64,000 bases of DNA from Escherichia coli (lineage in GTDB: Bacteria > Pseudomonadota > Gammaproteobacteria > Enterobacterales > Enterobacteriaceae), in NCBI RefSeq assembly GCF_024502345.1, contig NZ_JALDNN010000001.1; one strand, 5' to 3'. The notes under the pieces were generated by a model. That model searched no databases. It had not been told where the DNA came from and worked only from the letters and a program-made list of their open reading frames with translations. This document shows positions 48,794-56,300 of this stretch, piece by piece (the stretch's first letter is position 1; every line of letters starts with the position of its first letter). The translations under genes were made by a program, and so were the position numbers.

Positions 48794-48835
48794 GAGTATA
48801 GTTATTCTTATTTCCCTTCTTTTAGAGCTGGCTTG

Positions 48836-49892
48836 GGCTTTGTTGAATAAATCGAACTTTTGCTGAGTTGAAGGATCAGATCACGTATCTTCCCGACAAC
48901 GCAGACCGTTCCGTGGCAAAGCAAAAGTTCAAAATCACCAACTGGCCCACCTACAATAAAGCCCTCATCAACCGTGGCTCCATAACTTTCTGGCTGGATG
49001 ATGAAGCTATTCAGGCCTGGTATGAGTCAGCAACACCTTCTTCACGAGGCAGACCTCAGCGCTATTCTGACCTTGCCATCACGACTGTGCTGGTCATTAA
49101 ACGCGTATTCAGGCTGACCCTGCGCGCTGCGCAGGGCTTTATTGATTCCATTTTTTCTCTGATGAACGTTCCGCTACGCTGCCCGGATTACAGCTGTGTC
49201 AGCAGGCGGGCAAAGTCGGTTAATGTCAGTTTCAAAACGCCCACCCGGGGTGAAATCGCACACCTGGTAATTGATTCCACCGGGCTGAAGGTCTTCGGTG
49301 AAGGCGAGTGGAAAGTCAAAAAGCATGGCCAGGAACGCCGCCGTATCTGGCGTAAGCTGCATCTCGCCGTTGACAGTAAAACACATGAAATCATCTGCGC
49401 TGACCTGTCGCTGAACAACGTTACGGACTCAGAGGCCTTCCCCGGGTTAATCCGGCAAACCCACCGGAAAATCAGGTCAGCCGCCGCCGATGGCGCTTAC
49501 GATACCCGGCTATGTCACGATGAACTGCGGCGTAAGAAAATCAGCGCGCTTATCCCTCCCCGAAAAGGTGCGGGTTACTGGCCCGGTGAATATGCAGACC
49601 GTAACCGTGCAGTGGCTAATCAGCGAATGACCGGGAGTAATGCGCGGTGGAAATGGACAACAGATTACAACCGTCGCTCGATAGCGGAAACGGCGATGTA
49701 CCGGGTAAAACAGCTGTTCGGGGGTTCACTGACACTGCGTGACTACGATGGTCAGGTTGCAGAGGCTATGGCCCTGGTACGAGCGCTGAACAAAATGACG
49801 AAAGCAGGTATGCCTGAAAGCGTGCGTATTGCCTGAAAACACAACCCGCTACGGGGGAGACTTACCCGAAATCTGATTTATTCAACAAAGCC
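48836..49892 (+). mobile_element. IS903-family insertion sequence (IS5 family, IS903 group), 1057 bp, copy 1
   Basis: 18-bp terminal inverted repeats ggctttgttgaataaatc (48836..48853) / gatttattcaacaaagcc (49875..49892) bracketing a transposase ORF; flanks gctggcttg (left) and acacctaag (right). Confidence 0.9.
48868..49836 (+). CDS. IS903-family DDE transposase
   Basis: 322-aa ORF containing ...AKQKFKITNWPTYNKALINRGSITFWLDDEAIQAWYESATPSSRGRPQRYSDLAI...; true start may be the internal GTG/ATG giving ~307 aa. Confidence 0.85.
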   Translation: MKDQITYLPDNADRSVAKQKFKITNWPTYNKALINRGSITFWLDDEAIQAWYESATPSSRGRPQRYSDLAITTVLVIKRVFRLTLRAAQGFIDSIFSLMNVPLRCPDYSCVSRRAKSVNVSFKTPTRGEIAHLVIDSTGLKVFGEGEWKVKKHGQERRRIWRKLHLAVDSKTHEIICADLSLNNVTDSEAFPGLIRQTHRKIRSAAADGAYDTRLCHDELRRKKISALIPPRKGAGYWPGEYADRNRAVANQRMTGSNARWKWTTDYNRRSIAETAMYRVKQLFGGSLTLRDYDGQVAEAMALVRALNKMTKAGMPESVRIA

Positions 49893-52246: not shown

Positions 52247-53303
52247 GGCTTTGTTGAATAAATCAGATTTCGGGTAAGTCTCCCCCGTAGCGGGTTGTGT
52301 TTTCAGGCAATACGCACGCTTTCAGGCATACCTGCTTTCGTCATTTTGTTCAGCGCTCGTACCAGGGCCATAGCCTCTGCAACCTGACCATCGTAGTCAC
52401 GCAGTGTCAGTGAACCCCCGAACAGCTGTTTTACCCGGTACATCGCCGTTTCCGCTATCGAGCGACGGTTGTAATCTGTTGTCCATTTCCACCGCGCATT
52501 ACTCCCGGTCATTCGCTGATTAGCCACTGCACGGTTACGGTCTGCATATTCACCGGGCCAGTAACCCGCACCTTTTCGGGGAGGGATAAGCGCGCTGATT
52601 TTCTTACGCCGCAGTTCATCGTGACATAGCCGGGTATCGTAAGCGCCATCGGCGGCGGCTGACCTGATTTTCCGGTGGGTTTGCCGGATTAACCCGGGGA
52701 AGGCCTCTGAGTCCGTAACGTTGTTCAGCGACAGGTCAGCGCAGATGATTTCATGTGTTTTACTGTCAACGGCGAGATGCAGCTTACGCCAGATACGGCG
52801 GCGTTCCTGGCCATGCTTTTTGACTTTCCACTCGCCTTCACCGAAGACCTTCAGCCCGGTGGAATCAATTACCAGGTGTGCGATTTCACCCCGGGTGGGC
52901 GTTTTGAAACTGACATTAACCGACTTTGCCCGCCTGCTGACACAGCTGTAATCCGGGCAGCGTAGCGGAACGTTCATCAGAGAAAAAATGGAATCAATAA
53001 AGCCCTGCGCAGCGCGCAGGGTCAGCCTGAATACGCGTTTAATGACCAGCACAGTCGTGATGGCAAGGTCAGAATAGCGCTGAGGTCTGCCTCGTGAAGA
53101 AGGTGTTGCTGACTCATACCAGGCCTGAATAGCTTCATCATCCAGCCAGAAAGTTATGGAGCCACGGTTGATGAGGGCTTTATTGTAGGTGGGCCAGTTG
53201 GTGATTTTGAACTTTTGCTTTGCCACGGAACGGTCTGCGTTGTCGGGAAGATACGTGATCTGATCCTTCAACTCAGCAAAAGTTCGATTTATTCAACAAA
53301 GCC
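52247..53303 (-). mobile_element. IS903-family insertion sequence, 1057 bp, copy 2 (inverted relative to copy 1)
   Basis: IRs at 52247..52264 and 53286..53303; flanks caagccagc (52238..52246) and cttaggtgt (53304..53312). Confidence 0.9.
52303..53271 (-). CDS. IS903-family DDE transposase
   Basis: 322-aa ORF identical in translation to copy 1 transposase. Confidence 0.85.
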   Translation of the reverse strand: MKDQITYLPDNADRSVAKQKFKITNWPTYNKALINRGSITFWLDDEAIQAWYESATPSSRGRPQRYSDLAITTVLVIKRVFRLTLRAAQGFIDSIFSLMNVPLRCPDYSCVSRRAKSVNVSFKTPTRGEIAHLVIDSTGLKVFGEGEWKVKKHGQERRRIWRKLHLAVDSKTHEIICADLSLNNVTDSEAFPGLIRQTHRKIRSAAADGAYDTRLCHDELRRKKISALIPPRKGAGYWPGEYADRNRAVANQRMTGSNARWKWTTDYNRRSIAETAMYRVKQLFGGSLTLRDYDGQVAEAMALVRALNKMTKAGMPESVRIA

Positions 53304-56300
53304 CTTAGGTGTTTTTGAACCTGCTGTAGGAACGCTAAACATTGGTGCAGCTCACGGTGAGGCGGCGGCAGATGCCGGATTTATCACCAACGCGACGAAA
53401 GTAGAGTTTGGCTCTGGCGAAGGTGTTTTTGTCTTTAATCATACTAATAACAGTGATGCCGGCTACCAGGTCGATATGCTGATTACAGGTGACGATAAAG
53501 ACGGAAAAGTGATCCATGATGCAGGCCATACGGTGTTCAATGCAGGGAATACTTATAGCGGTAAAACGCTGGTCAATGACGGCCTCCTGACCATTGCGTC
53601 TCATACGGCAGATGGGGTAACGGGCATGGGGTCGAGTGAAGTAACCATTGCAAGCCCCGGTACGCTCGACATTCTCGCATCAACGAACAGTGCAGGAGAT
53701 TACACGCTGACCAATGCGCTCAAAGGCGATGGCTTGATGCGAGTTCAGCTGTCATCCTCCGACAAGATGTTTGGCTTTACACATGCAACAGGGACTGAAT
53801 TCGCCGGTGTTGCCCAGAAAGACAGTACCTTCACTCTGGAACGCGACAACACCGCTGCGCTTACTCACGCGATGTTGCAGTCTGACAGTGAAAATACCAC
53901 ATCGGTAAACGTGGGAGAGCAATCCATTGGTGGACTGGCCATGAATGGCGGTACGCTCATTTTCGATACGGATATTCCTGCTGCGACGCTTGCAGAGGGA
54001 TATATCAGCGTCGATACGCTGGTTGTCGGCGCGGGTGACTACACCTGGAAAGGACGTAACTATCAGGTAAACGGGACGGGCGACGTGCTTATCGACGTGC
54101 CTAAACCGTGGAATGATCCCATGGCGAATAACCCTCTGACGACGCTCAATTTGCTGGAACACGATGATAACCATGTCGGCGTTCAACTGGTGAAGGCGCA
54201 AACGGTTATTGGGTCGGGTGGCTCATTAACGTTACGTGATTTACAGGGCGACGAGGTGGAAGCGGACAAAACGTTACACATTGCGCAAAACGGAACGGTG
54301 GTCGCCGAGGGTGATTATGGATTCCGCCTCACGACCGCACCAGGTGATGGTTTGTACGTTAACTATGGGCTGAAAGCGCTGAACATCCATGGATGGCAAA
54401 AGCTGACGTTAGCCGAACATGGCGGAGCCTATGGCGCAACGGCCGATATGTCGGCAAAAATCGGCGGTGAAGGGGATCTGGCAATCAATACGGTGCGACA
54501 GGTTTCGCTTTCCAACGGTCAGAACGACTATCAGGGGGCAACCTACGTTCAGATGGGGACATTACGTACCGATGCGGATGGCGCGCTGGGCAACACCCGG
54601 GAACTGAACATCAGCAACGCAGCCATCGTCGATCTTAATGGATCGACGCAGACGGTAGAGACATTCACCGGGCAGATGGGTTCGACTGTTTTGTTCAAAG
54701 AAGGGTCGCTGACGGTAAATAAAGGTGGGATCAGTCAGGGTGAACTGACAGGTGGCGGAAACCTGAATGTTACAGGGGGAACGCTGGCTATCGAGGGGCT
54801 TAATGCACGCTACAATGCGTTAACCAGCGTTAGCCTAAATGCGGAAGTCAGCCTCGATAATACGCAGGGGTTAGGCAGAGGAAATATTGCCAATGACGGT
54901 CTGTTAACGCTAAAAAACGTGACTGGCGAACTGCGTAATAGCATAAGCGGGAAGGGTATCGTGAGCGCAACCGCCAGGACAGATGTAGAGCTGGATGGCG
55001 ATAATAGCCGCTTTGTGGGGCAATTCAACATTGATACAGGCAGCGCGCTCAGCGTCAACGAGCAGAAAAACCTGGGTGATGCTTCCGTTATCAATAATGG
55101 CCTGCTCACCATCTCCACTGAGCGTAGCTGGGCGATGACGCACAGTATCAGCGGTAGCGGTGATTTGACAAAACTGGGTACCGGGATCCTGACTCTTAAC
55201 AACGATTCCTCGGCGTATCAGGGTACGACGGATATCGTGGGGGGGGAAATTGCTTTCGGTTCCGACTCTGCCATTAATACGGCAAGTCAACACATTAATA
55301 TCCATAACAGCGGTGTGATGTCGGGAAATGTCACCACTGCAGGTGATGTGAACGTTATGTCTGGGGGGACACTGCGTGTCGCTAAAACCACAATCGGCGG
55401 CAACCTGGAGAATGGCGGCACGGTTCAAATGAACAGTGAAGGAGGAAAACCGGGGAATGTACTGACCGTTAACGGCAACTATACCGGAAACAATGGCCTG
55501 ATGACGTTCAACGCGACGCTGGGCGGCGATAATTCACCCACCGATAAGATGAACGTGAAAGGCGATACCCAAGGGAACACTCGCGTTCGGGTTGATAACA
55601 TTGGCGGCGTCGGTGCGCAAACGGTCAACGGTATTGAACTCATTGAGGTTGGCGGTAATTCTGCAGGTAATTTCGCGCTGACCACCGGAACTGTCGAAGC
55701 TGGGGCTTACGTCTACACGCTGGCTAAAGGGAAGGGGAATGACGAGAAAAACTGGTATCTGACCAGTAAATGGGACGGCGTAACGCCAGCGGATACACCC
55801 GATCCCATCAATAATCCCCCTGTTGTGGATCCGGAAGGCCCATCAGTTTATCGCCCGGAGGCCGGAAGCTATATCAGCAACATTGCCGCAGCCAACTCGC
55901 TGTTTAGCCATCGCTTACACGACCGTCTGGGTGAGCCGCAATATACAGATTCACTGCATTCTCAGGATTCAGCAAGCAGTATGTGGATGCGTCATGTCGG
56001 GGGGCACGAACGTTCCAGTGCCGGAGACGGCCAGCTAAATACTCAGGCTAACCGCTATGTATTGCAGCTAGGCGGCGATTTGGCGCAGTGGAGTAGCAAC
56101 GCGCAGGATCGCTGGCATCTTGGCGTGATGGCAGGCTACGCCAATCAGCACAGTAATACTCAGAGTAATCGTGTGGGTTATAAATCGGATGGGCGCATCA
56201 GCGGTTACAGCGCTGGGCTGTACGCGACCTGGTATCAGAACGATGCGAATAAGACCGGCGCTTATGTTGACAGCTGGGCGCTGTATAACTGGTACGTCCA

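Follow-up and report, generated by a model that had tools for sequence, protein, structure and literature searches.

Inversions bounded by insertion sequences (IS) are textbook rearrangements, a known and ordinary kind of event, in which identical inverted copies of the IS bound an interval and the inner halves of their target duplications are exchanged. Tn903, too, is laid out as a cargo segment, in its case a resistance gene, between two inverted copies of the IS903 type. The locus between lsrK and hipB in Escherichia coli is occupied by autotransporters of the ECSE_1600 family (AIDA-I-type), which combine an ESPR signal, passenger repeats, pertactin/AC_1 and a beta-barrel; we take the ydeK/yneO pseudogene to be the representative of this locus in K-12. 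The same product as that of a classical IS-mediated inversion is obtained by replicative inversion, which is known from Mu, the Tn3 family/Tn4401 and IS26 and has been reported for IS903 (PMC4471558, PMC2723962). The flank pattern considered below, and its reading, have been described for IS26 and Tn4401 (PMC4471558), and the pattern has been termed ‘replicative inversion’ (PMC2723962). IS903 is reported to use this intramolecular replicative pathway (Weinert et al. 1983, as cited in PMC4471558; PMC13224724).

In the window (the whole analyzed stretch of E. coli DNA, 64,000 nucleotides), comparison with other genomes indicates that 2,354 bp of the lsrK-hipBA interval are inverted relative to the normal locus, and we regard this inversion as real. 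It does not differ in kind from the classical IS-mediated inversions. The interval is small (2.35 kb) and falls within one gene plus the promoter of that gene, and none of the searched genomes showed an intermediate state. Whereas Tn903 carries a resistance gene, the enclosed segment here derives from part of a chromosomal gene, and the unit of segment and IS copies bears no sign of movement as a whole. Compared with other members of the ECSE_1600 family, the autotransporter gene is interrupted by an IS, has its 5' part flipped and is 45 amino acids (aa) short in the barrel. The features of the region are, in order of position:

47157..48749, plus strand: lsrK (autoinducer-2 kinase), 530-aa ORF; fixed neighbour to the left of the rearrangement
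48827..48835, plus strand: GCTGGCTTG, outer copy of target duplication 1, between lsrK and the autotransporter gene
48836..49892, plus strand: IS903B copy 1, 1057 bp; transposase ORF at 48868-49836 (plus strand)
49893-49901: ACACCTAAG, reverse complement of duplication 2, at the left end of the inverted segment
49893..52246, minus strand: inverted segment, 2,354 bp; with the outer flanks as reference, on the strand opposite to that in 4008 genomes
49893-51793, minus strand: autotransporter 5' part, first ~634 codons, within the inverted segment
51794-52237: AT-rich upstream region of the autotransporter gene, 29.5% G+C versus 48% in the window
52238-52246: CAAGCCAGC, reverse complement of duplication 1, at the right end of the inverted segment
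52247..53303, minus strand: IS903B copy 2, 1057 bp; transposase ORF at 52303-53271 (minus strand)
53304..53312, plus strand: CTTAGGTGT, outer copy of target duplication 2, inside the autotransporter gene
53313..56694, plus strand: autotransporter 3' part, comprising the C-terminal part of the passenger and the beta-barrel
56903-57169, plus strand: hipB, right-hand fixed neighbour, co-directional with lsrK; annotation from comparators
57169-58491, plus strand: hipA, right-hand fixed neighbour, co-directional with lsrK; annotation from comparators
60694..61751, plus strand: IS903B copy 3, 1058 bp; outside the inversion

Copies 1 and 2 share with IS903/IS903B the length of 1057 bp, the perfect 18-bp repeats, the 9-bp duplication and one IS5-family DDE transposase. 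In a direct sequence comparison, copy 1 and the reverse complement of copy 2 were identical at 1057/1057 bases. The perfect 18-bp terminal inverted repeat GGCTTTGTTGAATAAATC ends both copies (positions 48836/49875 and 52247/53286) and was also found at positions 60694/61734. A repeat search of the window scored the inverted arms as 1058 nt, because the bases that adjoin the two copies on the outside happen to pair; the true limits of the IS enclose 1057 bp, since five IS903B copies in other genomes fix the ends. The IS in the window were 98.7–99.9% identical to copies annotated in RefSeq as ‘IS5-like element IS903B family’, and the assignment as IS903B-type follows this annotation of the matching copies; for copy 1, identity to annotated IS903B copies was 98.7–99.7%. 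The element carries a single IS5-family DDE transposase, which matched the full length (1–289) of the IS5 family profile NF033579 with 357 bits (cutoff 140), and the ORF is uninterrupted in copies 1 and 2.

Copy 1 lies between GCTGGCTTG on the left and ACACCTAAG on the right, and copy 2 between CAAGCCAGC and CTTAGGTGT. Both flank pairs are exact reverse complements across exactly 9 bp, with a mismatch at the 10th base, and the probability that both 9-mer pairs match by coincidence is (4^-9)^2 = 1.5e-11. The first-pass annotation had placed both IS copies and their swapped flanks correctly to the base. After in silico re-inversion of the segment, matched 9-mers flank each IS copy; matched direct 9-bp duplications were likewise present around all of the comparator IS903B copies (5/5). 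At the empty sites in the genomes L001–L003, GCTGGCTTG and CTTAGGTGT each occur as a single copy with exactly the predicted flanks, as had been anticipated for genomes that lack the IS. These data support the reading that the swapped 9-bp duplications record the inversion, and the locus illustrates neatly how the history of a rearrangement can be deduced from target-site duplications. A limit of the method is that swapped duplications prove inversion, but not whether it occurred by recombination or by replicative transposition.

The flanks also bear on the origin of the whole structure. With its 2.35-kb cargo enclosed by two IS903-type copies in inverted orientation, 4,468 bp in total, the structure is built like Tn903, and an IS903B-segment-IS903B unit might have arrived or moved as a whole. 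However, GCTGGCTTG and CTTAGGTGT, which flank the structure on the outside, do not form a direct 9-bp repeat, and in thousands of genomes the cargo and these outer flanks are natively adjacent. Movement as a composite transposon is refuted by these outer flanks together with the native position of all parts, and we consider it extremely improbable. Because the cargo and the outer flanks natively adjoin, we conclude that the unit arose in place and did not get there by transposition. Together with the interval between them, the two IS potentially constitute a unit of the Tn903 type, and they also make an invertible segment, which can confuse assemblies.

A reconstruction of the locus was made in which the inversion was undone and both IS and one copy of each duplication were removed. 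Of 5426 complete E. coli genomes, 4008 aligned with this reconstruction in an unbroken match at 100% coverage, the best at 99.3%. The gene order in the aligned genomes was lsrK, an ECSE_1600-family autotransporter gene, hipB and hipA, all co-directional. The opposite strand of the segment relative to these 4008 genomes bears out the earlier proposal that the 2.35 kb between the inverted IS copies had been flipped, and the co-direction with lsrK and hipBA that had been proposed for the restored gene, together with its AT-rich upstream region, is seen in the thousands of aligned genomes and in the base composition of the window, respectively. In the present orientation, the autotransporter 5' part and the promoter face lsrK, and the 3' part is still located ahead of hipBA. 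In many E. coli genomes, the identical LsrK protein is annotated as lsrK and has FGGY domains; contigs with exactly this protein were all colinear, and none exceeded 99.1% identity. The closest relative in the collections showed 99.0% identity over 23 kb. When the window was scanned with Rfam and for tRNAs, no RNA feature relevant to the region emerged.

The arrangement as found in the window had no match (0) among the 5426 complete E. coli genomes. The exact junction strings were found in none of the GTDB representative genomes or JGI metagenomes, and the exact 643-aa N-terminal fusion product was absent from the exact-protein gene index. The occurrence of the arrangement in no other searched genome would fit an assembly artefact, where two simple insertions with matched duplications are present and the interval has been mis-oriented, or a mixed culture of which one orientation was reported. 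Reads shorter than ~1.1 kb would fit both orientations equally, and the orientation of the interval is known here from the assembled contig alone. However, this contig shows no break across a 13-kb stretch with three near-identical 1.06-kb repeats, which argues for long-read or finished data that easily resolve the orientation, and in the mixed-culture version the inversion would still be real. We consider an artefact of this type improbable.

Re-inversion joins the two autotransporter fragments in frame (...GGEVYLGV/FEPAVGTLNIG...) and yields a continuous ORF of 1760 aa, which agrees with the prediction of the first-pass annotation. The restored protein matched the ECSE_1600 family model NF011422 with 3978 bits (cutoff 2335). 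While the continuous frame was thus recovered, the restored gene is not intact: the match to NF011422 is interrupted at profile position 1629/1806 and does not span a complete beta-barrel, where an in-frame deletion removed 135 nt (45 aa), with the joint between 56288 and 56289. The 135-nt stretch is retained in 14/14 comparators, the family length is 1806 aa, and other genomes contain an intact 1806-aa gene between lsrK and hipBA, co-directional with both. The autotransporter gene is dead in either orientation of the segment. Since even the restored gene would be 45 aa short in the beta-barrel, it was probably in decay regardless of the rearrangement. A phase-variable on/off switch was rejected as an explanation, as flipping the segment back leaves a 1057-bp IS in the gene and the deletion in the barrel. 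For annotation this means that the ‘autotransporter fragments’ found on the two strands belong to a single dead gene rather than representing two genes. The biological effect is small, with an accessory adhesin-type gene that is repeatedly inactivated in E. coli and part of whose barrel was already missing here.

The most likely route to the inversion, to which we assign about an even chance, consists of two IS903B insertions followed by homologous recombination. In this scenario, IS903B would have entered twice by simple insertion, in opposite orientations and at sites close to each other: the intergenic GCTGGCTTG, located 86 bp past lsrK, and CTTAGGTGT within the autotransporter gene. Each insertion would have created a direct 9-bp duplication, and the insertion at CTTAGGTGT would have split the gene. 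RecA-type recombination between the 1057-bp inverted repeats would then have flipped the interval and swapped the inner halves of the duplications. The first-pass annotation had ascribed the split of the gene to the inversion, but under its own two-insertion route the insertion at CTTAGGTGT would already have caused it. Tavakoli and Derbyshire (2001) reportedly found simple insertion to be the predominant pathway of IS903. In recA+ E. coli, inverted repeats of 1 kb recombine frequently. Three of the five comparator IS903B insertions are independent events within the same autotransporter gene; on account of these three insertions and of the matched duplications of the comparator copies, simple insertion in this gene is common and tolerated. 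Double hits also favor this route: two IS in the same gene were observed in other strains, with IS3 and IS903B in DAX4 and IS2 and IS903B in MLI106K4. An interval between inverted repeats can flip repeatedly, and the culture may therefore hold both orientations.

Several points stand against this recombination route. The proposed intermediate has no example in the genomes searched: a re-inverted query with two IS, compared with the 5426 complete E. coli genomes, recovered no IS903B at either site, and the four genomes that reached at least 80% coverage each carried IS903B elsewhere in the gene. The collections also contain no close relative, the best identity being the 99.0% over 23 kb given above. 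Furthermore, three events are needed versus two for replicative inversion, which predicts the same pattern equally. In the latter case, one IS903B resident at either of the two sites, with a normal matched duplication, would have transposed intramolecularly in trans to the other site 2.35 kb away. Its 3' ends would have attacked opposite strands, and replication through a Shapiro intermediate would have duplicated the IS in inverted orientation, so that in a single event the interval became inverted and the new 9-bp target duplicated in inverted orientation. The inversion itself would then have split the gene, and a matched duplication would once have existed around only one of the copies. The product predicted for such an event, A-a-[IS>]-t'-B'-a'-[<IS]-t-C, is the observed structure. 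This one-step inversion, which we regard as a serious candidate at somewhat below an even chance, is also favored by the 100% identity of copies 1 and 2 as compared with the one-base difference of copy 3, and by the uninterrupted transposase in both copies. In addition, IS903 uses both pathways, and adjacent deletions linked to IS903B have been reported. On the other hand, replicative products are reportedly, according to secondary citations, a small minority of IS903 transposition events, and the identity of the copies and the unmatched flanks of copy 3 fit homologous recombination equally. A transposase variant biased toward replication was considered and rejected: nothing suggests one, since the transposase in the window has no private amino-acid changes (0) when compared with five other IS903B copies.

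The sequence cannot separate recombination from replicative inversion. The earlier claim that each IS once had a matched duplication is thus not a necessary one, because replicative inversion leaves identical flanks.

Copy 3 differs from copies 1 and 2 by one base, an extra T, and its transposase is frameshifted. Its 9-bp flanks, ATGGGCTGT and CCTGCTGGA, are unmatched, and at its location 7.4 kb downstream it joins a chromosomal integrase gene to plasmid-like DNA, which shows that copy 3 marks another IS903B-linked rearrangement nearby. A joint between chromosomal and plasmid-like DNA without a matched duplication is what a cointegrate or an adjacent deletion leaves, and in this respect copy 3 counts in favor of replicative inversion. 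As copy 3 also lacks a matched duplication, no local copy looks like an undisturbed simple insertion, a point against the two-insertion route. A combined reading, in which the inversion is a natural trace of the rare replicative pathway of IS903B and occurred in one step, copy 3 is a cointegrate or adjacent-deletion joint, and replicative IS903B transposition, beyond insertion with recombination, is actively reshaping the chromosome, is conceivable but rather unlikely.

In other strains, the autotransporter gene is intact or disrupted by other IS elements or frameshifts. A hotspot for IS903B within the gene was unsupported, as about four matches in 5426 genomes are, by an informal estimate, near a rough uniform expectation.

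The two IS903B copies bounding the rearranged interval are identical, all 1057 of 1057 bases of copy 1 agreeing with the reverse complement of copy 2 in a script check. Both end in the perfect 18-bp repeat GGCTTTGTTGAATAAATC, and each carries a 322-codon ORF matching the IS5-family transposase model NF033579 (357 bits; cutoff 140). The window element shares 98.7-99.9% identity with RefSeq copies named “IS5-like element IS903B family”. Its limits were fixed from five IS903B copies in the genomes of other strains, each 1057 bp long with a matched direct 9-bp repeat (TTCTTTGTT, TCGTCAGGG, GCTAAAACC, CTCGCTAGG and GGCGGAAAA, respectively); therefore, the 9-bp duplication made by IS903B is verified here. 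The 1058-nt arms returned by an inverted-repeat search are one base too long owing to a chance pairing of a flanking base. The features of the region, with flanks read directly from the window, are:

48836-49892, plus strand: IS903B copy 1, flanked by GCTGGCTTG on the left and ACACCTAAG on the right
49893-51793, minus strand: autotransporter gene fragment
52247-53303, minus strand: IS903B copy 2, flanked by CAAGCCAGC on the left and CTTAGGTGT on the right
53313-56694, plus strand: autotransporter gene fragment

The 9-mer at the outer left is the reverse complement of the one at the inner right, the inner-left and outer-right 9-mers are related in the same way, and a script check showed that this matching ends at exactly 9 bp. 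The chance of two such specified 9-mer matches is ~1.5e-11. The swapped flanks prove that the interval, together with its two inner IS junctions, was turned round relative to the outer DNA. The inverted copies with swapped flanks described in the first-pass annotation are thus borne out by both the sequence identity and the exact reverse complements. It is very unlikely that the arrangement reflects a wrong or mixed orientation in the assembly, and any explanation other than this and the two routes given below is just as unlikely.

For the reconstruction, 49893-52246 was re-inverted, and the two IS elements were taken out together with a single copy of each 9-mer. A 3600-nt stretch of it across both former insertion sites aligned unbroken and with 100% coverage in 4008 of the 5426 complete E. 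coli genomes, with a top identity of 99.3% in O55:H7 and O157:H7 strains. Windows of 59 nt centred on each site were found with 0-1 mismatch in three comparator loci, where the empty sites contain a single GCTGGCTTG and a single CTTAGGTGT, as had been expected of loci lacking the IS. The rearranged region is flanked by lsrR and lsrK on the left and by hipB and hipA on the right; comparators have lsrK, the autotransporter gene, hipB and hipA on one strand, which confirms the proposed co-direction, and the region upstream of the autotransporter gene is indeed AT-rich (29.5% G+C). At the first site (48820-48850 with 52225-52246), the intergenic target GCTGGCTTG lies within a small hairpin, AGCTGGC-TTGTTAAAT-GCCAGCT, located 86 bp past the lsrK stop. 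In other strains this hairpin has a 9-bp stem and a 5-nt loop; here its arms were parted by IS insertion and inversion.

Joined together, the two fragments encode a 1760-aa protein with an N-terminal ESPR-type signal and a C-terminal autotransporter barrel, which matches NF011422 (“ECSE_1600 family autotransporter”) with 3978 bits (cutoff 2335). The profile and intact homologues measure 1806 aa. This gap is mainly due to the in-frame loss of 135 nt (45 aa) from the beta-barrel, a deletion whose joint lies at 56288/56289 and which is bounded by the imperfect 9-bp direct repeats ATAACTGGT and ATACCTGGT. The deletion was present in 0 of 14 comparator loci and is thus private to the lineage of the window and independent of the IS events. 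Autotransporter barrels consist of 12 strands, and, judging from this known architecture, the loss of 45 residues should abolish translocation. Hence, the gene has been damaged at least twice, by the IS interruption and by the barrel deletion, and the gene termed “restored” in the first-pass annotation does rejoin as one protein but would still be defective.

In O55:H7 the gene is frameshifted, and individual other strains carry in it ISEc20, IS26, IS903B as the sole IS, or a double insertion of IS3 and IS903B or of IS2 and IS903B. The gene behaves as dispensable and under decay. Across comparator loci L001-L003, L005, L010, L011, L015 and L016 from other strains, inactivation involved IS903B at three other sites, IS2, IS3, IS26, ISEc20, frameshifts and internal deletions. 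An IS4-type element just upstream of the gene was also seen among the comparator loci.

A third IS903B copy lies beyond hipA:

58739-60693, after hipA: tyrosine-recombinase (site-specific integrase) gene cluster
60694-61751, plus strand: IS903B copy 3, oriented like copy 1
61752-64000: truncated IS110-family transposase gene, ~1 kb without an ORF >65 aa, and a RelE/ParE-type toxin-antitoxin pair

The copy 3 transposase is frameshifted by one extra T (GCTGG to GCTTGG), and its flanks, ATGGGCTGT (60685-60693) and CCTGCTGGA (61752-61760), are unmatched in either sense. On the left it cuts the second gene of the three-integrase cluster, and the remainder of that element is missing. Strain 39EVA has the same cluster after hipA with an independent IS903B ~115 nt off, which shows a matched duplication and has the remainder of the integrase gene beyond it. 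On the right, copy 3 adjoins the 3' part of the IS110-family transposase gene, followed by the RelE/ParE module. This DNA shares 99.9-100% identity with sequences that occur mostly on ~300-kb E. coli plasmids, where the IS110 transposase is whole; therefore, plasmid-like DNA lies in the chromosome next to hipA. An Rfam scan of the stretch devoid of long ORFs (about 62250-63260) gave no match. As a chromosomal integrase gene is joined to an IS110-family 3' part, copy 3 is left over from a further rearrangement linked to IS903B. It is a novel joint, of the sort that a cointegrate or integration event or a deletion leaves, and the partner has to be outside the window.

Two established routes could have produced the inversion. 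In the first-pass reading, which we consider evenly poised, IS903B would have entered twice by simple insertion, the two copies facing opposite ways and each gaining a matched duplication, and homologous recombination inside the 1057-bp inverted repeats would then have flipped the interval. Simple insertion predominates in IS903 transposition, and the window transposase shows no amino-acid change peculiar to it by which the pathway might be shifted; both points favor this reading and count against the other route. Simple IS903B insertions in the same gene in three other lineages and the double IS insertions in other strains also support it. Alternatively, and still a serious though more tentative possibility, one resident copy would have undergone replicative transposition “in trans” within the molecule, a single event that yields A-a-[IS>]-t'-B'-a'-[<IS]-t-C directly. 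Such a history needs two events instead of three, and it agrees with the identity of copies 1 and 2, against a one-base difference in copy 3, and with the latter being itself a joint without a duplication. This type of event is named “replicative inversion” in PMC2723962, and IS903 belongs, according to papers citing the original work, to the small number of IS elements for which both pathways have been demonstrated (Weinert et al. 1983, 1984; Tavakoli and Derbyshire 2001). Both routes predict the same sequence, IS orientations included, and nothing in the window separates them. Moreover, once two inverted copies are present, recombination can flip the interval repeatedly, erasing any remaining difference. 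The first-pass annotation was therefore correct in its observation and largely in its reading, including the inversion, but over-committed to one of two indistinguishable mechanisms. Its statement that the inversion split the gene is literally right only for the one-step route; with two insertions, the IS at CTTAGGTGT did so.

Neither the arrangement of the window nor an un-inverted form with IS903B at either site occurred in any of the complete E. coli genomes searched; the four genomes reaching 80% coverage with the un-inverted two-IS query all had IS903B at other positions. No GTDB representative genome or JGI metagenome contained the exact junction strings, and the 643-aa fusion product had no entry in the gene index searched. 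The nearest relative of the window in the collections showed a best identity of 99.0% over 23 kb, and contigs with the exact LsrK protein reached at most 99.1%. Since the collections hold no close relative, the absence of intermediates is uninformative.

All elements of the case are of known kind, namely IS903B, its 9-bp duplication and a commonly decayed accessory autotransporter gene, as is inversion, be it between IS copies in inverted orientation or through replicative transposition; this particular instance is not in the collections searched. It offers a clean annotation example and shows once more that the mechanism cannot be read from swapped duplications. Elsewhere in the window, 17685-17898 (plus strand) matches the Hfq-binding sRNA family STnc560 over its full length (RF01407; 282 bits), which is ordinary for E. 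coli.
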